From: a virus
Lineage: Duplodnaviria > Heunggongvirae > Uroviricota > Caudoviricetes
Direction: 5' to 3' (one strand)
IMG/VR virus record: IMGVR_UViG_2850808358_000007
Location: 1-9,200 of that record
Length of the DNA: 9,200 bases
Made by a program: the position numbers and the translations under genes. Positions 1 through 9,200 of the stretch are shown in pieces; position 1 is the first letter of the stretch, and each line of letters starts with the position of its first letter. Below the pieces are notes generated by a model. It ran no database searches, was not told where the DNA came from, and worked only from the letters and a program-made list of their open reading frames with translations.

Positions 1-819
1 TTAAGCAGCCATCTGATGATATTTTTCCCTGAAGGCTGCCGGGGAGATATTCCCCAGACGAGAGTGACGACGCTGACGATTGTAGAAAATCTCAATGTAT
101 TCCCGTATTACTGAGATGGCTTCATCCCGGTTATTAAAACGATAGTGGCTCAGGCTCTCATTTTTCAGCGTTCCCCAGAAGCTTTCCATCGGAGCGTTGT
201 CGTAACAGTTACCTTTACGCGACATTGATGTTTTCAGACCAAACTGCTCCTGTATGACCCGGTAATCGTATGCGCAGTACTGTGAACCTCGATCAGAGTG
301 GTGGATTAGCCCGGCAGGTGGGCGCTGGCTCCTGAGCGCCATAAACAGGGCTTTACCTGTCAGCTCTTTTGTCATGCGCTCTCCCATGGCGTAGCCGACA
401 ATTTCGCACGTATAAACATCTTTGATGCCAGCGAGGTACAACCATCCCTCCTGTGTGGCAACATACGTCAGGTCCGCCACCCAGACCTGATTTGGTGCTG
501 TAGGAGCGAACGTCTGGTTCAGCAGATTTGGCGCAACTGGCAGATTGTGGTTCGGGTTCGTAGTCGCTCTGAACTTGCGTTTCTGCTTACAGCGTAGCCT
601 TAGCTCCTTACGAAGACGTGCCAGTCGGTCACGACCAACGATGATGCCATTCTCTGCCAGCTCCGTCTGGAGCCGCCGGGTTCCATATGTTTCGCGAGTG
701 CGGATATGTGCCACCTTAATCTCCAGTTTTAGCCGCTCATCACTTTGTTTTCTGTCTGAGGGTTCATGCTGTACCCGGTTGTAATAACCGCTCCTGGATA
801 CACCAAATACCTGACACAT
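1..819 (-). CDS. IS3-family transposase OrfB (DDE catalytic domain)
   Basis: 272-aa ORF with integrase-like DDE-region motifs (HSDRGSQY, CYDNAPMESFWGTLK). It is in the -1 frame relative to orfA, and that frame is open with no stop from the slippery site (~906) down to the ATG at 819. Confidence 0.85.
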   Translation of the reverse strand: MCQVFGVSRSGYYNRVQHEPSDRKQSDERLKLEIKVAHIRTRETYGTRRLQTELAENGIIVGRDRLARLRKELRLRCKQKRKFRATTNPNHNLPVAPNLLNQTFAPTAPNQVWVADLTYVATQEGWLYLAGIKDVYTCEIVGYAMGERMTKELTGKALFMALRSQRPPAGLIHHSDRGSQYCAYDYRVIQEQFGLKTSMSRKGNCYDNAPMESFWGTLKNESLSHYRFNNRDEAISVIREYIEIFYNRQRRHSRLGNISPAAFREKYHQMAA

Positions 820-1157
820 CGCTTCAATGGGAAATTGTTGTCGCCATTGTTCGATTAACGCGTATTTTTCAGCGACTCCTGTGCAAAATACGCTGTTGCT
901 TTTTTTAATATATCTCGCTCAAGGCGAGCTTCATTTAACGCCTTACGCAGTTGCAGAATTTCAGATTCCAGTTCAGCCACCGTGCGGGAACCAGGAGTAC
1001 CGAGCCCTTTTCTGGCGGCGGTAACCCATTGTCCTAAAGTGCCTTCAGGAAGGGATAATCGGGAAGCGCCTTCACTGATCGAAAGTTGATTTTCAAGAAC
1101 CGTTCTGACAGCTTCGGCTTTGAACTCTTTAGAGTAACGTTGGGTTTTTCTGCTCAT
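1..1157 (-). CDS. OrfAB transframe transposase (predicted -1 programmed frameshift product)
   Basis: Slippery heptamer A_AAA_AAA (minus strand, 906..900) sits in the orfA zero frame at codons Leu-Lys-Lys. After a -1 slip the frame reads ...KKSNSVFCTGVAEKYALIEQWRQQFPIEAMCQVFG... without a stop into orfB (translated by hand from the sequence). Confidence 0.65.
855..1157 (-). CDS. IS3-family transposase OrfA (DNA-binding N-terminal part)
   Basis: 100-aa ORF beginning MSRKTQRYSKEFKAEAV, with a C-terminal leucine-heptad region (LESEILQLRKALNEARLERDILKKATAYFA) typical of IS3-family OrfA. A GGAG Shine-Dalgarno lies about 8 nt upstream on the minus strand (reverse complement of 1162-1175). Confidence 0.85.
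   Translation of the reverse strand: MSRKTQRYSKEFKAEAVRTVLENQLSISEGASRLSLPEGTLGQWVTAARKGLGTPGSRTVAELESEILQLRKALNEARLERDILKKATAYFAQESLKNTR
900..906 (-). other. -1 programmed ribosomal frameshift slippery site (A AAA AAA G) of the IS transposase
   Basis: A run of 7 T on the plus strand at 900-906, i.e. 7 A on the minus strand, positioned in the orfA frame as X_XXY_YYZ. Confidence 0.6.
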
Positions 1158-1221
1158 TATTAGCTCCTTCTGATGCCATTCTATTTCAGGAAGGAGTGTC
1201 CGTTAAACTCAGGCTACCTCA

Positions 1222-2175
1222 GTCGGCATGGTCTGCACGGCCAGCGATGCGGATGCGGAAACCTTTCCCCTCAATAAACCTGTGCTGATTACCAATGTGC
1301 AGAGCGCAATTGCAAAGGCCGGTAAAAAAGGCACGCTGGCGGCGTCGCTGCAGGCCATCGCCGACCAGTCAAAACCGGTCACCGTTGTTGTGCGCGTGGA
1401 AGACGGCACCGGCGACGACGAGGAAACGAAACTTGCGCAGACCGTTTCCAATATCATCGGCACCACCGACGAAAACGGTCAGTACACCGGACTGAAAGCC
1501 CTGCTGGCGGCGGAGTCAGTAACCGGTGTTAAACCGCGTATTCTCGGCGTGCCGGGACTGGACACCAAAGAGGTGGCTGTTGCACTGGCATCAGTCTGTC
1601 AGAAGCTGCGCGCTTTCGGGTATATCAGCGCATGGGGCTGTAAGACCATTTCCGAGGTGAAAGCCTACCGCCAGAATTTCAGCCAGCGTGAGCTGATGGT
1701 CATCTGGCCGGATTTCCTCGCATGGGATACGGTCACCAGTACCACCGCCACCGCGTATGCCACCGCCCGTGCGCTGGGTCTGCGTGCTAAAATCGACCAG
1801 GAGCAGGGCTGGCATAAAACGTTGTCCAACGTCGGGGTAAATGGTGTTACCGGCATCAGCGCATCTGTATTCTGGGATTTGCAGGAGTCCGGTACCGATG
1901 CTGACCTGCTTAACGAGTCAGGCGTCACTACGCTGATTCGCGACATCGTTGACGGCATCAATGCCAAATTTCGTGAGCTGAAAACAAACGGCTATATCGT
2001 GGATGCGACCTGCTGGTTCAGCGAAGAATCCAACGATGCGGAAACTCTTAAGGCCGGAAAACTGTATATCGACTACGACTATACCCCGGTTCCTCCTCTT
2101 GAAAACCTGACCCTGCGCCAGCGTATTACCGATAAATACCTGGCAAATCTGGTCACCTCGGTTAACAGCAATTAA
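1222..2175 (+). pseudogene. FI: P2-like tail sheath protein FI, 5'-truncated by the IS insertion (first in-frame ATG at 1228)
   Basis: The reading frame is open from the IS junction, and the protein ([27 protein letters not shown]...[12 protein letters not shown]) matches my recollection of P2 gpFI. About 317 codons remain versus the ~396 aa I recall for P2 FI. There is no native N-terminus or ribosome-binding site, and the gene sits immediately upstream of FII as in P2. Confidence 0.8.
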
Positions 2176-2187
2176 GGAGCCTGACCG

Positions 2188-2706
2188 ATGGCAATGCCGC
2201 GCAAACTCAAGTTAATGAACGTCTTTCTGAACGGCTACAGCTATCAGGGCGTTGCAAAGTCCGTCACGCTGCCAAAACTGACCCGTAAACTCGAAAACTA
2301 TCGCGGTGCGGGGATGAACGGAAGCGCACCGGTAGACCTCGGCCTTGATGACGATGCGCTGTCAATGGAGTGGTCGCTCGGGGGCTTCCCGGATTCGGTT
2401 ATCTGGGAGCTTTACGCCGCAACCGGTGTGGATGCCGTGCCGATTCGTTTTGCTGGCTCTTACCAGCGTGACGATACCGGCGAAACGGTGGCCGTAGAGG
2501 TGGTCATGCGTGGCCGTCAGAAAGAAATCGACACCGGCGAGGGTAAACAGGGAGAAGACACCGAGTCGAAAATCTCCGTGGTCTGCACCTATTTCCGGCT
2601 GACGATGGACGGTAAGGAGCTGGTCGAAATCGACACCATCAACATGATTGAGAAGGTGAACGGCGTCGACCGGCTGGAGCAACACCGCCGCAATATCGGC
2701 CTGTAA
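2188..2706 (+). CDS. FII: P2-like tail tube protein FII
   Basis: 172-aa ORF, the length I recall for P2 gpFII. AGGAG lies 8 nt upstream of the ATG. Position between FI and E is syntenic with P2. Confidence 0.88.
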   Translation: MAMPRKLKLMNVFLNGYSYQGVAKSVTLPKLTRKLENYRGAGMNGSAPVDLGLDDDALSMEWSLGGFPDSVIWELYAATGVDAVPIRFAGSYQRDDTGETVAVEVVMRGRQKEIDTGEGKQGEDTESKISVVCTYFRLTMDGKELVEIDTINMIEKVNGVDRLEQHRRNIGL

Positions 2707-2762
2707 TTTTCATCCGGTCAGCCTGCCTGACCGGTTAACACCGATTCAGAAGTGAGAAAACC

Positions 2763-3038
2763 ATGAACAAAGAAAATGTGATTACCCTGGACAATCCGGT
2801 CAAGCGTGGTGAGCAGGTTATCGAACAGGTCACGCTGATGAAACCCAGTGCGGGGACGCTGCGCGGTGTCAGTCTGGCTGCGGTCGCAAACTCAGAAGTC
2901 GATGCACTGATTAAGGTGCTGCCGCGCATGACGGCACCGATGCTGACCGAGCAGGAAGTCGCCGCGCTGGAACTGCCTGACCTTGTGGCGCTGGCTGGTA
3001 AGGTGGTCGGTTTTTTGTCGCCGAACTCGGTGCAGTAA
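2763..3038 (+). CDS. E: P2-like tail assembly chaperone gpE
   Basis: 91-aa ORF, the length I recall for P2 gpE, with the slippery heptamer T_TTT_TTG near its 3' end. Confidence 0.85.
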   Translation: MNKENVITLDNPVKRGEQVIEQVTLMKPSAGTLRGVSLAAVANSEVDALIKVLPRMTAPMLTEQEVAALELPDLVALAGKVVGFLSPNSVQ

Positions 3039-3190
3039 CGTTCCCGAAAAATCTGTCGGTCGATGACCTGATGGCGGATGTGGCAGTGATATTTCACTGG
3101 CCGCCATCAGAACTGTATCCCATGAGCCTGACCGAACTCATCACATGGCGCGAAAAGGCGCTCCGGCGAAGCGGAAACACAAATGAGTAA
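2763..3190 (+). CDS. E': gpE+E' transframe tail chaperone (predicted -1 frameshift at 3011-3017)
   Basis: T_TTT_TTG at 3011-3017 is in the E zero frame (codons Gly-Phe-Leu). By hand translation the -1 frame is then open to a TAA at 3188-3190, giving ~142 aa, the length I recall for P2 E+E'. Confidence 0.65.
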
Positions 3191-5609
3191 CAATGTAAAA
3201 TTACAGGTATTGCTCAGGGCTGTTGACCAGGCATCCCGCCCGTTTAAATCCATCCGCACAGCGAGTAAGTCGCTGTCGGGGATATCCGGGAAACACAAAA
3301 ATCACTGCGCGAGCTGAACGGTCACGCATCCCGTATTGAGGGATTCCGCAAGACCAGTGCACAGCTCGCCGTGACTGGTCATGCACTTGAAAAGGCACGG
3401 CAGGAGGCCGAAGCCCTTGCCACACAGTTTAAAAACACCGAACGTCCGACCCGTGCTCAGGCGAAAGTGCTGGAATCAGCAAAGCGAGCGGCGGAGGACT
3501 TACAGGCGAAATATAACCGCCTGACGGATTCCGTTAAACGCCAGCAGCGGGAACTGGCCGCTGTGGGAATTAATACCCGCAATCTTGCACATGATGAGCA
3601 GGGACTGAAAAACCGTATCAGTGAAACCACCGCACAGCTTAACCGACAACGTGACGCGCTGGCGCGTGTCAGTGCGCAACAGGCAAAACTTAACGCAGTA
3701 AAACAGCGTTATCAGGCAGGCAAGGAACTGGCCGGAAATATGGCCTCAGTGGGCGCTGCCGGTGTGGGGATTGCTGCTGCGGGAACAATGGCCGGAGTTA
3801 AGCTACTGATGCCCGGTTATGAGTTTGCGCAGAAAAACTCAGAATTGCAGGCCGTGCTCGGAGTGGCAAAAGACTCTGCCGAAATGGCTGCACTACGCAA
3901 GCAGGCGCGCCAGCTCGGCGGACGATGCAGCCGGTGCGCAGATTATCATTGCGAAAGCGGGTGGAGATGCTGCGGCTATTCAGGCGGCAACGCCGGTCAC
4001 GCTGAATATGGCACTGGCGAATCAGCGGACGATGGAAGAAAACGCGCAACTGTTGCTGGGGACTAAGGCATCCTTTCAACTGTCAAATGATGATGTCAGC
4101 CATGTGGGCGACGTGTTGTCAGCAACGATGAATAAGTCGGCGGCTGATTTTCAGGGACTCAGTGATGCACTGACTTACCTCGGTCCGGTTGCGAGGACGG
4201 CAGGTGTAAGTCTTGAGCAGGCAGCGGCCATGACAGGTGTGCTGCATGACAATAACATCAGGGGGTCAATGGCGGGTACGGGTAGTAGTGCCGTTGTCAC
4301 CCGATTACAGGCTCCGACAGGGAAAGCATGGGAAGCACTAAAAGAGCTTGGCGTTAAAACCTCGGACAAAAAGGGAAATATGCGTCCGTTGTTCACCATT
4401 CTGAAAGAGATTCAGGTCAGCTTTGATAAACACAAGCTGGGAACGTCTCAGAAGGGGGAATACCTTAAAACCATTTTTGGTGAGGAAGCCCTGAAATCAG
4501 CGAACGTTTTACTGGCAGCGGCTGCAAGCGGAAAACTGGATAAGCTGACCGCCACGCTGAAAGCCTCGGACGGTAAAACGGAAGAGCTGGTTAAAATCAT
4601 GCAGGACAACCTCGGCGGTGACTTTAAGGAGTTTCAGTCCGCTTATGAGGCGGTGGGGACTGACCTGTTTGACCAGCAGGAAGGCGCACTGCGTAATCTC
4701 ACGCAGACGGCCACAAAGTATGTGTTAAAACTCGACGGCTGGATCCAGAAAAACAAATCACTGGCGTCAACCATCGGCATCATTGTCGGTGGTGCACTGG
4801 CGCTGACTGGTGTCATCGGTGCCATTGGCCTCGTAGCCTGGCCGGTTATCACCGGCATCAATGCCATTATCGCGGCAGCAGGCGCAATGGGGGCAATCTT
4901 CACGACGGTTGGCAGTGCTGTTATGACGGCCATCGGGGCGATTAGCTGGCCGGTTGTGGCCGTGGTGGCTGCAATTGTCGCCGGGGCGTTGCTTATCCGT
5001 AAATACTGGGAGCCTGTCAGCGCATTCTTTGGCGGTGTGGTGGAAGGGCTGAAAGCGGCATTTGCGCCGGTGGGGGAACTGTTCGCGCCACTTAAGCCGG
5101 TGTTTGACTGGCTGGGTGAAAAGTTACAGGCCGCGTGGCAGTGGTTTAAAAACCTGATTGCCCCCGTCAAAGCCACCCAGGACACCCTGAACCGTTGCCG
5201 TGATACGGGCGTCATGTTCGGGCAGGCACTGGCTGACGCGCTGATGCTGCCGCTTAATGCGTTCAACAAACTGCGCAGCGGCATTGACTGGGTACTGGAA
5301 AAACTCGGTGTTATCAACAAAGAGTCAGACACACTTGACCAGACCGCCGCCAGAACTCATGCCGCCACGTATGGCAACGGTGGTTATATTCCGGCGACCA
5401 GCTCTTATGCAGGCTATCAGGCTTATCAGCCGGTCACGGTACCGGCTGGTCGCTCTTATGTGGACCAGAGTAAAAACGAATATCACATCAGCCTGACGGG
5501 TGGTACTGCGCCGGGGACACAGCTTGACCGCCAGTTACAGGATGCGCTCGAAAAATACGAGCGGGATAAACGTGCGCGCGCCCGTGCCAGCATGATGCAT
5601 GACGGTTAA
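3183..5609 (+). pseudogene. T: P2-like tail tape measure protein gpT, disrupted by two reading-frame changes
   Basis: Three colinear frame segments: ATG at 3183 (MSNNVKLQVLLRAVDQ...) stops at 3315-3317; a second frame is open from 3269 to 4066; a third runs 3819-5609. All read as continuous tape-measure-like sequence (coiled-coil N-terminus, Gly/Ala/Ile-rich hydrophobic segment, C-terminus ...YERDKRARARASMMHDG). The 2427-nt span is close to the 815 codons I recall for P2 gpT. Confidence 0.7.
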
Positions 5610-5623
5610 GGAGGTGACGAAAA

Positions 5624-6103
5624 GTGATGCTCGCGTTAGGTATGTTTGTTTTTATGCGCCAGACGCTGCCACACCAGACCATGCAGCGTGAATCAGATTA
5701 TCGCTGGCCGTCAAATTCCCGTATCGGTAAACGGGATGCCTACCAGTTTCTCGGTGTGGGTGAGGAAAACATGACGCTTGCCGGCGTGCTTTATCCCGAA
5801 CTGACCGGCGGGAAGCTGACGATGACCACGCTCAGGCTGATGGCAGAGGAAGGCCGGGCGTGGCCGTTGCTGGATGGCACTGGCATGATTTACGGCATGT
5901 ATATCGTCAGCAAGGTGAGTGAAACAGGGAGTATTTTCTTTGCAGACGGCACACCCCGGAAAATTGATTTTACGCTGTCACTCACCCGCGTTGATGAATC
6001 ACTGGCCGCGCTTTATGGCGATATCGGTAAACAGGCGGAATCGCTCATCGGTAAGGCTGGCAGTATGGCGACCAGATTCACGGGTATGACGGGGGCGGGA
6101 TAA
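5624..6103 (+). CDS. U: P2-like tail protein gpU
   Basis: 159-aa ORF, the length I recall for P2 gpU, starting at GTG 5624 followed by ATG 5627. GGAGGT at 5610-5615 is 8 nt upstream. Its stop overlaps the D start (TAATG). Confidence 0.85.
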   Translation: MMLALGMFVFMRQTLPHQTMQRESDYRWPSNSRIGKRDAYQFLGVGEENMTLAGVLYPELTGGKLTMTTLRLMAEEGRAWPLLDGTGMIYGMYIVSKVSETGSIFFADGTPRKIDFTLSLTRVDESLAALYGDIGKQAESLIGKAGSMATRFTGMTGAG

Positions 6104-7266
6104 TGCTGGATGCGCTGACATTTGATGCAGGCAGTACGCTGACGCCGGATTACATGCTGATGCTCGACAGCAGGGATATTACCGGCAATATCAGCGACCG
6201 TCTGATGAGCATGACCCTGACGGATAACCGGGGCTTTGAGGCTGACCAGCTTGATATTGAACTGAACGACGCCGACGGGCAGGTAGGGCTACCGGTTCGT
6301 GGCGCTGTCCTGACGGTGTATATCGGCTGGAAAGGTTTTGCCCTGGTATGCAAAGGGAAATTTACCGTTGATGAGGTTGAACACCGGGGCGCACCGGATG
6401 TGGTCACCATCCGCGCCCGGAGTGCAGATTTTCGCGGGACGCTCAATTCCCGCCGTGAAGGCTCCTGGCATGACACCACGCTCGGTGCGATTGTTGAGGC
6501 GATAGCCTCCCGTAACAGGCTGGAAGCCAGTGTCGCGCCGTCACTGGCAGGAATTAAAATCCCGCACATCGACCAGTCGCAGGAGTCTGATGCGAAATTC
6601 CTGACCCGCCTTGCTGAACGCAACGGCGGTGAGGTGTCGGTAAAAATGGGAAAACTGTTGTTTCTCAAAGCGGGGCAGGGGGTGACGGCCAGCGGTAAAA
6701 AAATCCCGCAGATTACCATCACCCGCAGCGACGGCGACCGTCATCATTTTGCGATTGCTGACCGTGGAGCTTACACCGGCGTAACGGCAAAGTGGTTACA
6801 CACCAAAGACCCGAAGCCGCAAAAGCAGAAGGTAAAACTGAAACGCAAAAAGAAAGAAAAACACCTGCGCGCACTGGAGCACCCGAAAGCGAAACCGGTC
6901 ACGCAGAAGAAAGCGCCAAAAGTACCGGAAGCGCGCGAAGGTGAATACATGGCCGGTGAAGCTGACAACGTTTTTGCCCTGACTACGGTATATGCCACGA
7001 AAGCACAGGCCATGCGCGCCGCTCAGGCGAAGTGGGATAAACTGCAACGGGGCGTTGCGGAGTTCTCCATCAGCCTTGCCACTGGTCGTGCTGATATTTA
7101 CACGGAAACACCGGTCAGAGTGTCAGGCTTTAAGCGCGTCATAGACGAGCAGGACTGGACAATCACTAAGGTGACACATTTTCTGAATAATAGCGGCTTC
7201 ACGACGTCCTTGGAGCTTGAGGTCAGGCTTTCTGATGTGGAGTACGAAACAGAAGATGATGAGTAA
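6103..7266 (+). CDS. D: P2-like tail protein gpD
   Basis: 387-aa ORF, the length I recall for P2 gpD. Start is translationally coupled to the U stop, and position is syntenic with P2. It contains an internal Lys-rich linker. Confidence 0.88.
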   Translation: MLDALTFDAGSTLTPDYMLMLDSRDITGNISDRLMSMTLTDNRGFEADQLDIELNDADGQVGLPVRGAVLTVYIGWKGFALVCKGKFTVDEVEHRGAPDVVTIRARSADFRGTLNSRREGSWHDTTLGAIVEAIASRNRLEASVAPSLAGIKIPHIDQSQESDAKFLTRLAERNGGEVSVKMGKLLFLKAGQGVTASGKKIPQITITRSDGDRHHFAIADRGAYTGVTAKWLHTKDPKPQKQKVKLKRKKKEKHLRALEHPKAKPVTQKKAPKVPEAREGEYMAGEADNVFALTTVYATKAQAMRAAQAKWDKLQRGVAEFSISLATGRADIYTETPVRVSGFKRVIDEQDWTITKVTHFLNNSGFTTSLELEVRLSDVEYETEDDE

Positions 7267-7347
7267 TGTTTTTATTTTATCTGTTTGTTTTATAAGGATA
7301 AATTAACTAAAATGGCACCGTCAACAAAACCGGAAGAGGTGCTCGCG

Positions 7348-7566
7348 ATGTTTCATTGTCCTTTATGCCAGCATGCCGCACATGCGCGTACAAGCCGCTA
7401 TATCACTGACACGACAAAAGAGCGTTATCACCAGTGTCAGAACGTGAATTGCAGCGCCACGTTCATCACTTATGAGTCGGTACAGCGATACATCGTGAAG
7501 CCGGGAGAAGTCCACGCCGTAAGACCGCACCCGTTGCCGTCAGGGCAGCAAATTATGTGGATGTAA
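7348..7566 (+). CDS. ogr: Ogr, zinc-finger late gene transcription activator
   Basis: 72-aa product MFHCPLCQHAAHARTSRYITDTTKERYHQCQNVNCSATF... with Cys at 4, 7, 30 and 35 (a Cys4 zinc finger), matching my recollection of P2 Ogr and E. coli K-12 OgrK. GAGG lies ~8 nt upstream of this ATG. The tracked ORF starts further upstream at 7285, but that extension has no ribosome-binding site support. Confidence 0.9.
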   Translation: MFHCPLCQHAAHARTSRYITDTTKERYHQCQNVNCSATFITYESVQRYIVKPGEVHAVRPHPLPSGQQIMWM

Positions 7567-7578
7567 TTACAAACAGGA

Positions 7579-7603
7579 AGCCCCTCAGTCGAGGGGCTTT
7601 TTT
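7579..7603 (+). terminator. Rho-independent terminator downstream of ogr
   Basis: GC-rich perfect inverted repeat GCCCCTC (7580-7586) / GAGGGGC (7591-7597) with a 4-nt loop, followed by a run of 6 T (7598-7603), 13 nt after the ogr stop. Confidence 0.75.
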
Positions 7604-7667
7604 GTCGATGTGGTCAATGTGTGGACGTGACCAGAAATAAATCCTTTTATTTCATTGTATTACGCGT

Positions 7668-7694
7668 AAAAAATAAGCCCGTGTAAGGGAGATT
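7668..7694 (+). other. Putative P2 attachment-site core (attR) marking the prophage/host boundary
   Basis: AAAAAATAAGCCCGTGTAAGGGAGATT matches my recollection of the 27-bp P2 att core. It lies immediately after ogr and its terminator, where attP sits in the P2 genome, and before host yegQ. Recollection only, unverified. Confidence 0.55.
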
Positions 7695-7838
7695 ACACAG
7701 GCTAAGGAGGTGGTTCCTGGTACAGCTAGCATTTTATGGGTTATGTTTTTCAGCGAAACGGATGATAACCTTAATAAATGCAGCTGTATGTGATCGGTTT
7801 CTAAGAATTTTCCATCCGGGAAAAATAATCGAAATTAA

Positions 7839-9200
7839 TCACTTACCGTGGGGGTTACGCGTGGTTTCCCCGGAGAAATTACGCATTAGCAGCGCGTAAT
7901 TTAGCTCAAGATCCTGCGGGACCGGGAGCCACACAGTATAACCATCGCCTGGTGCGACCGGCATAGCTTCGCCTTTGGCGTTTTCCATGTGCTCAAGGGT
8001 AAAGTTAATGTTGCCTTGCGGCGTCATCAGCTCAAGACTGTCGCCAACGGAGAATTTATTTTTCACCGCTACCGCTGCGAGGTCCCCCTTGCGCTCACCG
8101 GTAAACTCACCAACAAACTGCTGGCGGTCAGAAACTGAATAACCGTATTCGTAGTTCTGATAATCGTCGTGAGTATGACGACGCAGGAAACCTTCGGTAT
8201 AGCCACGATGCGCCAGACCTTCCAGAGTTTCCAGCAGGCTGGTATCGAACGGTTTTCCCGCAGCGGCGTCATCGATAGCTTTGCGGTAAACCTGTGCGGT
8301 GCGTGCGCAATAGTAGAAAGATTTGGTACGACCTTCGATTTTCAGCGAATGCACGCCCATTTTGGTCAGGCGTTCTACATGGGCGATGGCGCGCAGATCT
8401 TTCGAGTTCATGATGTAAGTGCCGTGCTCATCTTCAAACGCGGTCATATACTCGCCAGGACGCTGGGCCTCTTCGATCATAAACACTTTGTCGGTTGGCG
8501 CGCCGATACCCAGCGTCGGCTCAACATTTTGCACCGGAATCGGCTCGTACTTGTGTACGATGTTGCCAACGTCATCTTCTTTCCCTTCCTGGACGTTGTA
8601 CTCCCAGCGGCAGGCGTTGGTGCAGGTACCCTGGTTCGGATCGCGCTTGTTGATATAGCCAGAGAGCAGGCAGCGACCGGAGTAGGCCATGCACAGTGCG
8701 CCGTGAACGAAGATCTCGATCTCCATATCCGGCACCTGATTGCGGATCTCTTCAATCTCTTCAAGCGACAGCTCGCGAGAGAGGATCACGCGGGTCAGGC
8801 CCATTTGCTGCCAGAATTTCACCGTCGCCCAGTTTACGGCGTTAGCCTGCACCGAGAGGTGGATCGGCATTTCAGGGAAGTGCTCACGCACCAGCATAAT
8901 CAGCCCTGGATCGGACATAATCAGCGCATCCGGCCCCATTTCCACCACCGGTTTCAGGTCACAGATAAAGGTTTTCAGCTTGGCGTTGTGCGGTGCAATG
9001 TTGACCACGACATAAAACTTTTTCCCCAGCGCGTGGGCTTCATTGATGCCGAGCTGAAGATTTTCGTGGTTGAATTCGTTGTTGCGCACACGTAGGGAGT
9101 AACGCGGCTGGCCCGCATAAACAGCATCTGCGCCATAAGCGAAAGCGTAACGCATATTTTTCAGCGTTCCCGCCGGGGAAAGGAGTTCCGGTTTAAACAT
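7839..9200 (-). CDS. yegQ: Peptidase U32 family protein YegQ (TrhP, linked to tRNA U34 hydroxylation)
   Basis: 453-aa ORF, MFKPELLSPAGTLKNMRYAFAYGADAVYAGQPRYSLRVRNNEFNHENL..., matching the length and sequence I recall for E. coli YegQ. The start codon is at the last base of the window. A convergent ogrK lies next to yegQ in E. coli K-12. Confidence 0.9.
   Translation of the reverse strand: MFKPELLSPAGTLKNMRYAFAYGADAVYAGQPRYSLRVRNNEFNHENLQLGINEAHALGKKFYVVVNIAPHNAKLKTFICDLKPVVEMGPDALIMSDPGLIMLVREHFPEMPIHLSVQANAVNWATVKFWQQMGLTRVILSRELSLEEIEEIRNQVPDMEIEIFVHGALCMAYSGRCLLSGYINKRDPNQGTCTNACRWEYNVQEGKEDDVGNIVHKYEPIPVQNVEPTLGIGAPTDKVFMIEEAQRPGEYMTAFEDEHGTYIMNSKDLRAIAHVERLTKMGVHSLKIEGRTKSFYYCARTAQVYRKAIDDAAAGKPFDTSLLETLEGLAHRGYTEGFLRRHTHDDYQNYEYGYSVSDRQQFVGEFTGERKGDLAAVAVKNKFSVGDSLELMTPQGNINFTLEHMENAKGEAMPVAPGDGYTVWLPVPQDLELNYALLMRNFSGETTRNPHGK

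Follow-up and report, generated by a model that had tools for sequence, protein, structure and literature searches.

The 9,200-nt window (the whole stretch of DNA that was analysed) contains the right-hand quarter of a defective P2-like prophage, located in locI, the classical P2 attachment site. A P2-like Peduovirus phage has very probably integrated at this site and decayed in place through an IS600-linked deletion and slippage, independently of the ogrK-D' remnant found in E. coli K-12. The source chromosome (GCA_002950035.1) is 100% identical to the window. P2-like phages align to positions 1222-7694 at 96.4-98.4% identity, a Pfam search assigned families to every ORF, and comparison with the annotated maps of Wphi and P2_4C9 reveals the P2-group tail gene order FI-FII-E/E'-T-U-D followed by ogr. 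The likeness to P2 genes is thus one of homology, and chance resemblance is rejected. Each of the features proposed from inspection of the letters (intact D, U, FII, E and ogr, with degraded T and FI) was located at or near its predicted position. The features of the window are as follows.

1-1221, minus strand: IS600 (IS3 family), 99% identity to annotated IS600 copies, with Pfam HTH_Tnp_1 and rve
1222-2175, plus strand: FI', tail-sheath pseudogene (sheath domains by Pfam; phage alignment)
2188-2706, plus strand: FII, tail tube gene, intact, 172 aa (phage comparison, Pfam)
2763-3038, plus strand: E, intact (phage comparison, Pfam)
2763-3190, plus strand: E+E' frameshift product, intact (T7G slippery site at 3011-3017, E' frame open to 3190)
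3183-5609, plus strand: T, tape-measure pseudogene, broken by -1 and -20 lesions
5624-6103, plus strand: U, tail gene, intact (phage comparison, Pfam)
6103-7266, plus strand: D (baseplate hub, 'late control D'), intact, 387 aa (Pfam Phage_GPD)
7348-7566, plus strand: ogr, intact, 72 aa (Pfam Ogr_Delta; protein identical to phage Ogr)
7578-7604, plus strand: intrinsic terminator of ogr, hairpin AAGCCCCTC-AGTC-GAGGGGCTT followed by a T run (read directly; the hairpin was flagged by a terminator scan)
7606-7667, no strand: phage P arm of attR, containing the repeats TGTGGTC and TGTGGAC
7668-7694, no strand: P2 att core AAAAAATAAGCCCGTGTAAGGGAGATT, 27 nt, at the attR junction (sequence comparison)
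7671-7756, minus strand: cyaR (ryeE) sRNA gene (Rfam RF00112)
7839-9200, minus strand: yegQ/trhP, complete, 453 aa, convergent with ogr, 98.5% DNA identity to K-12 yegQ

In the source chromosome, the order of elements is yegR, the attL core, the last 54 codons of int, IS600 and FI from codon 28 onwards. A total of 6.7 kb of P2 DNA plus the IS is kept between intact attL and attR sites. The int gene is thus reduced to 54 codons, and the prophage is considered defective because everything between this remnant and FI codon 27 is missing, as opposed to the complete genome of an inducible P2. Compared with the lysogen SBF45, in which the prophage measures 30,562 nt from core to core, 23,671 nt (~78%) have been lost. 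The original prediction held that the element was eroded by IS insertion and small indels, not by large deletion. An IS600 copy, a 156-nt deletion in FI and lesions in T are present (with the caveat that the 1-nt loss in T may be an assembly error). The absence of ~23.7 kb of a ~30.6-kb prophage, relative to an intact lysogen at the same site, contradicts the claim that no large deletion took place.

IS600 is a ~1.26 kb element encoding orfA and orfB that generates a 3-bp target duplication upon simple insertion. The window begins 42 nt inside the IS600 copy, with orfA located at 855-1157 and orfB at 1-819; the full copy of 1263 bp occupies 8732-9994 of the source-chromosome segment. The inverted-repeat ends could be read directly (terminal TGAGG...CCTCA), and the triplets bordering the element are unlike (TAC versus GTC). 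This lack of a target-site duplication contrasts with the GTA/GTA duplication around an IS600 found on a plasmid of E. coli, and suggests that IS600 here marks a rearrangement junction. It is from the missing duplication that we infer the order of IS insertion and deletion. As IS600 runs off the left end of the window, the window viewed alone is compatible with a simple insertion into a prophage that continues past the left edge, as was proposed earlier. However, in the source chromosome int', attL and yegR all lie no more than 500 nt beyond the far end of IS600, and this refutes simple insertion, leaving the proposal a vanishingly small probability. The IS600/FI junction was found in none of the GTDB species representatives, and a search of the E. 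coli complete genomes returned only eight plasmid records, matching at 80% coverage and 90% identity. Since the IS600 matches on these plasmids reach 30 nt beyond the IS end, a mobilised FI fragment was considered; direct comparison revealed the extra 30 nt to be chance similarity.

The FI reading frame starts at the IS600 junction, with codons 1-27 and the upstream late promoter gone. It also carries an in-frame deletion of 156 nt (codons 268-319) at 1941/1942, located between 12-nt direct repeats ACGCTGATTCGC. Among the matches listed in an E. coli search, none carried this deletion, the best span (276 nt in two pieces) corresponding to intact FI. The T gene has two lesions: one nucleotide is missing from a G5 run (3278-3282, codon 34), and at 3921 (codon 247) 20 nt have been deleted between 7-nt CTCGGCG repeats. 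The former may be an assembly error, given that two otherwise identical short-read assemblies do not have the G-run loss. The annotated ATG start of U is replaced by GTG, with an ATG at codon 2, and D has no internal stop.

Five tail ORFs remain open and are near-identical to those of functional phages, raising the question of whether the FII-E-U-D block has been selected as a tailocin-like or other host-beneficial device. When compared to the tailocin set of sheath, tube, tape measure, baseplate, fibres and promoter, the sheath gene has lost its start and an internal segment, the tape measure carries a frameshift, and nothing is left of the baseplate, spike and fibre genes or of the FI late promoter. 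Furthermore, the close identity to live phages points to recent acquisition rather than purifying selection, and the same architecture was found in 0 E. coli complete genomes. Such a role is hence very improbable. From its sequence, ogr, which has its own promoter and terminator, is predicted to be the sole gene of the remnant likely to function. The ogr product is a zinc-finger activator of P2 late promoters. Longer ogr ORFs starting at 7285 or 7312 were rejected as over-extensions.

The right end of the element could be placed precisely. Phage homology stops at 7694 and homology to the empty site starts at 7660-7668, the empty sites of other strains joining exactly at the core in alignments (including that of H10407). 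The same 27-nt core is present in attR, attL, the empty site and the lysogen, with the attL core located beyond the window at 8464-8490 of the source-chromosome segment, and it matches the published locI/attP core (PMC3931495). The CyaR model (Rfam RF00112) matches over positions 1-85 of 85 with 100.7 bits, compared to a gathering score of 47, and a terminator scan places the cyaR terminator hairpin (7676-7703) and its U tail at the att core. The integration site is therefore locI, corresponding to the 3' end of cyaR between yegR and yegQ. Because the phage and host cores are identical, an intact cyaR is rebuilt at attR. The original prediction was silent on this sRNA gene as the integration target, and cyaR is worth annotating in the window.

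The yegQ/trhP product is a tRNA U34 hydroxylase. In the source chromosome the gene lies between yegP/baeR and yegR/yegS, and these neighbours, together with the 98.5% DNA identity, confirm its orthology to K-12 yegQ. The notion that yegR could be a moron of an older prophage was rejected: a tblastn search of 50,697 phage records gave two near-identical matches, which are read as chromosomal flank. Several IS elements are located in the 21 kb around the remnant; the source record, a complete chromosome without a 100% match in the RefSeq E. coli collection, is conjecturally from Shigella.

It is possible that the 'empty' Escherichia locI site is itself a fossil attR, a proposal that we put forward tentatively and lean against. 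Homology between the chromosomal arm and the phage P arm extends over ~65-75 nt leftwards of the 27-nt core, with 65-68% identity in the long alleles (z = 6.5-7.5 versus shuffles); a TGTGGTC repeat and an A/T-rich element fall within it. The P2-like phage Wphi, whose core is different, retains these arm positions as well, an argument for the arm sequence being native to the phage. No such arm similarity was seen in the Kluyvera and Enterobacter flanks left of the identical core. If true, P2 relics at locI would be nested, from the complete prophage through the 6.7-kb element and the 0.64 kb of K-12 to a ~75-nt fossil under every 'empty' site, and the fossil arm could help account for the preference of P2 for locI. 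This possible fossil P arm is the only element described here that might be new.

The window was originally read as an earlier stage of decay of the K-12 remnant. Both the K-12 locus and P2-like phages are indeed homologous to the window: the K-12 remnant (a D' of 70 codons, ogrK and yegQ) aligns to 7054-9200 without gaps over 2,147 nt at 98.0% identity, its D' fragment corresponding to 7054-7266. The predicted collinearity, the retention of more genes in the window, the shared Peduovirus/P2 family and the shared locI position and orientation, convergent with yegQ, are all borne out. The same site, the same orientation and the gapless alignment could be explained by a single old P2-like lysogenisation at locI that was inherited by both lineages and decayed differently, in which case the window would be a sister of the K-12 remnant that has eroded less. 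The ogr dS of 0.046 and the single mismatch in 101 positions of the ogr-core spacer, no more diverged than yegQ (dS 0.064), are in keeping with this, and the ogr-attR segment alone is compatible with common ancestry followed by recombination in D.

For a shared insertion, phage divergence should not exceed that of the flank. In contrast, the D' dS of 0.243 is about four times that of yegQ (Fisher p = 8e-5). The window is furthermore identical to the independent phage genome P2_4C9 at 613 of the 614 positions in 7054-7667, the D'-ogr region, over which K-12 shows 21 differences from the window and 22 from P2_4C9. K-12 and SBF45 likewise have near-identical flanks (2/1506 differences) and unlike phage DNA (18/614). 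Finally, the deletion endpoints have nothing in common. The K-12 deletion runs from inside the attL core, of which 18/27 nt are kept, to D codon 318; this junction between attL core nt 18 and D codon 318 does not occur in the window, in which D is full-length, and attL is complete in the source genome. The deletions are thus taken to be independent of one another. Taken with a site that is occupied in only ~21% of genomes, and in several states, these data make a shared insertion improbable, and the notion of an earlier decay stage does not hold. Separate acquisition followed by decay in place is the reading we favour.

In the proposed history, a P2-like Peduovirus phage would have used its Int recombinase to integrate at locI, in the interval between yegR and yegQ, and the prophage would then have been inactivated in place through ordinary mutational decay. 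An IS600-associated deletion would have removed the ~23.7 kb that reach from int codon 283 to FI codon 27, and with them the genes for immunity, replication, head, lysis, baseplate and fibres along with the late promoter of FI. Slippage during replication, between short direct repeats, may have taken the 156 nt from FI and the 20 nt from T, and one G may also have been lost from the T G5 run. Both acquisition and decay would have followed a path independent of the K-12 ogrK-D' remnant. The site is used again and again, and the element is one of the many states in which it is occupied.

A survey of the yegQ-flanking region across the E. coli complete genomes revealed at least three structural states. 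The ogr-attR-cyaR arrangement is present in 1,130/5,426 genomes (~21% occupied), a full D lies beside yegQ in 727/5,426, and the K-12 junction occurs in 358/5,426 (the frequency figures for the set of 5,426 being 1,130, 727, 690 and 358). In a published table that covers E. coli W, K-12 and B, P2 prophages are entered at cyaR, as is the ogr-D' remnant of K-12 (PMC3032704), and the K-12 P2 remnant at locI goes back to Barreiro & Haggard-Ljungquist 1992, as cited in PMC3931495. Descriptions of locI, of the K-12 ogr-D' remnant and of P2 prophages at cyaR, whether full or defective, date back to 1992, and the original prediction was made unaware of this published series of elements (PMC3931495, PMC3032704). 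As phages and remnants of all sizes are common at locI and already described, the observation is correct but ordinary. Its discovery value is small; it offers a clean, fully resolved example of prophage grounding by IS-linked deletion and slippage deletions, and shows the independent re-use of a single att site.

Complete P2-like prophages at cyaR, such as those of E. coli SBF45 and Wphi2 of E. coli W, share the att site and the FI-to-ogr order with the window element at 97% identity. These prophages keep int, C, cox and the replication, head, lysis, baseplate and fibre genes, and the window element differs by the loss of 23.7 kb and by three further lesions. P2_4C9 (LR595883) is 98.4% identical to the window over 6.5 kb with identical D and Ogr proteins, and in contrast to the defective remnant, it and other Peduovirus are complete free phage genomes. 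The K-12 remnant shares the site, orientation, attR and cyaR/yegQ flank, with ogr intact in both. However, it keeps only 0.64 kb compared to 6.7 kb, its attL core is fused to D codon 318 where the window element has a whole attL, an int fragment and IS600 at the junction, and its D' is of a different phage lineage, 93.4% identical to that of the window. More generally, phages and islands inserted in the 3' ends of tRNA, tmRNA and sRNA genes likewise carry an attP core that duplicates the 3' end (terminator), so that the gene is rebuilt at one junction; unlike in tRNA-targeting elements, the target here is the terminator of an Hfq-dependent sRNA.

The defective P2-like prophage and its flank were mapped by combining an ORF listing with Pfam scans and alignment to the annotated P2-like phages Wphi and P2_4C9. 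The resulting features are as follows.

1-1221, minus strand: IS600
1222-2175, plus strand: FI'
2188-2706, plus strand: FII
2763-3038, plus strand: E, with a T7G slip site at 3011; E' open to 3190
3183-5609, plus strand: T
5624-6103, plus strand: U
6103-7266, plus strand: D
7348-7566, plus strand: ogr
7578-7604, plus strand: ogr hairpin terminator
7606-7667: phage P arm
7668-7694: 27-nt att core
7671-7756, minus strand: cyaR
7839-9200, minus strand: yegQ/trhP

Alignment of positions 1222-7694 to P2-group phages gives 96.4-98.4% identity. FII, E, U, D and Ogr all have phage lengths and differ from P2_4C9 by 0-1 residues, the D and Ogr proteins being identical to those of that phage. U begins with GTG (5624-5629) where the phages have ATG; given that codon 2 is ATG, the normal start is probably still retained. 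Scored against P2_4C9 and the intact lysogen E. coli SBF45, four lesions are present in the window, two each in FI and T. FI begins at codon 28, abutting the end of IS600, and carries a 156-nt in-frame deletion (codons 268-319) flanked by 12-nt repeats, ACGCTGATTCGC. T is one G short in its G5 run at 3278-3282 (codon 34), and at 3921 (codon 247) it has lost 20 nt between CTCGGCG repeats. Two independent short-read assemblies show 100% identity to the window elsewhere across 8.0 and 3.1 kb but read G5 at 3278-3282, and the -1 frameshift may thus be peculiar to this strain or an artefact of homopolymer assembly in CP026877.1. The 20-nt deletion by itself suffices to break T.

Matching the truncated FI protein exactly against database proteins led to the 5.13-Mb source chromosome (CP026877.1, GCA_002950035.1). 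The window corresponds at 100% identity to positions 8774-17973 of L004, a stretch of this chromosome, which reveals the left end of the element. To the left of IS600, the chromosome runs from yegS and yegR into an attL core that is complete (L004 8464-8490), then through the phage P' arm to the final 54 codons of int, which directly abut IS600 (L004 8732-9994). The triplets flanking IS600 differ (TAC vs GTC), whereas a copy on an E. coli plasmid is bounded by a GTA/GTA duplication. Hence, IS600 here marks a rearrangement junction, which could have arisen through an adjacent deletion caused by the IS or through recombination of two IS600 copies. The original prediction that the prophage was being eroded by IS insertion and small indels, and not by large deletion, is wrong on the latter point: the SBF45 prophage measures 30,562 nt core to core, and 23,671 nt of the equivalent is missing from the element, a loss invisible from the window alone. 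The remnant spans 7,977 nt, 1,263 nt of which are IS600. The source chromosome is IS-rich near the locus (L004 700-3200 and 18515-19843): gatC, which is fragmented (EIIC-GAT called as 90 + 310 aa), has a DDE transposase immediately upstream, and yegP and baeR are separated by an IS4-family element. Such a setting would suit a Shigella-like genome.

The remnant cannot produce particles: neither the sheath gene nor the tape measure gene is intact, the deletion has taken the baseplate, fibre, head, lysis and replication genes along with int and cox, and FI has lost its upstream late promoter. Its ogr is probably active, judging from the retention of its own upstream region, terminator and unchanged protein; the ogr copies of K-12 and B were reportedly found functional by Slettan et al. 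in 1992. With attL and attR both intact, the element should be excisable by Int and Cox provided in trans.

Positions 7668-7694 (AAAAAATAAGCCCGTGTAAGGGAGATT) match the attP/locI core of P2 as given in PMC3931495, a passage of which, citing Barreiro & Haggard-Ljungquist 1992, describes locI in K-12 as occupied by a P2 remnant. In the alignments phage homology stops at 7694, while empty-site homology starts at 7660-7668. An Rfam scan places a full-length CyaR/RyeE sRNA between ogr and yegQ (7671-7756, minus strand; 100.7 bits vs a gathering score of 47), and the att core constitutes the CyaR terminator hairpin (7676-7703) plus U tail. The target of P2 integration is therefore the cyaR 3' end, and the gene is rebuilt at attR. 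The element had rightly been assigned to the same site as the K-12 remnant, with cyaR overlooked as the target.

In K-12 MG1655 the order is yegR, a 70-codon D fragment, ogrK and yegQ. The stretch from the D fragment through yegQ gives a gap-free alignment to window 7054-9200 (98.0% identity), which bears out the earlier factual description. The left junctions differ: in K-12 the chromosomal arm and 18 of the 27 core nucleotides are joined to D codon 318 via ~2 nt of microhomology, so that the attL core is truncated, whereas that of the element is whole. The two deletions are thus independent. Illegitimate recombination or an aberrant Int event are possible origins of the K-12 junction (L001 3989-4004). 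Of the 614 positions in 7054-7667, the window shares all but 21 with K-12 and all but one with P2_4C9; K-12 and P2_4C9 differ at 22. Comparing window and K-12, dS is 0.243 for D' (the K-12-matching part of D), 0.046 for ogr and 0.064 for yegQ, and a Fisher test of the excess in D' relative to yegQ gives p = 8e-5. K-12 and SBF45 show 2 differences over 1,506 flank positions but 18 over 614 phage positions. The simplest reading is that one site has been lysogenised repeatedly and independently by related mosaic P2-like phages. Descent of both remnants from one ancestral insertion is very improbable, although the ogr-attR part taken alone is compatible with it. The shared P2 family and site therefore stand, but the element is very probably not an earlier stage of decay of the K-12 prophage.

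In Escherichia, at 'empty' sites as well as at attL, the chromosomal arm to the left of the core itself resembles the phage P arm (local score 37-38; shuffle controls 16.4-16.5 ± 2.1-2.4). Long alleles, from the source attL and Escherichia sp. MOD1-EC7003, show 65-68% global identity over ~75-80 nt (z = 6.5-7.5); the common E. coli allele has a 16-nt deletion inside this stretch. A TGTGGTC repeat lies within the shared arm stretch (window 7606-7667 vs L007 3940-4000, L004 8390-8463 and L022). The P arm of Wphi, a phage whose core differs, has the same organisation, with two copies of TGTGGAC, the P2 Int arm-type sites. Left of the identical core and cyaR, the similarity was not seen in five Kluyvera species or two E. 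hormaechei-labelled records, with one marginal exception among the latter (z = 2.6). Based on these alignments, the chromosomal arm may be a fossil of an older P2-like attR, even at the 'empty' site; the alternative is the opposite origin, with the phage having captured host DNA.

In the Kluyvera species (L012, L014, L015, L017, L021) the identical 27-nt core, cyaR and yegQ are conserved, with different DNA left of the core in each species and a P2-like P arm in K. intermedia. The 3' end of cyaR appears to be an integration hotspot across genera. In the E. hormaechei-titled records (L010, L016) the YegQ protein beside the core is 99.8-100% identical to that of E. coli, which may reflect mislabelling, contamination or recent transfer. 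SBF45 carries a ParE/ParD toxin-antitoxin pair between yegQ and yegP (L003 28259-28853), absent from K-12, H10407 and the source genome.

Among 5,426 complete E. coli genomes, yegQ is present in 5,424 and ogr-attR-cyaR is contiguous in 1,130 (21%); full D and ogr lie next to yegQ in 727, FI through yegQ is found in 690, and 358 have the K-12-type junction. The IS600/FI junction occurs in none of the 5,426. The observation behind the original prediction is confirmed and its interpretation partly supported. Both the type of element and its site are already known, and the range of occupancy states has been published: the genome paper on E. coli W lists, for the 'cyaR RNA' site, Wphi2 (P2) in W, 'ogr-D'' in K-12 and 'P2*B' in B (PMC3032704).
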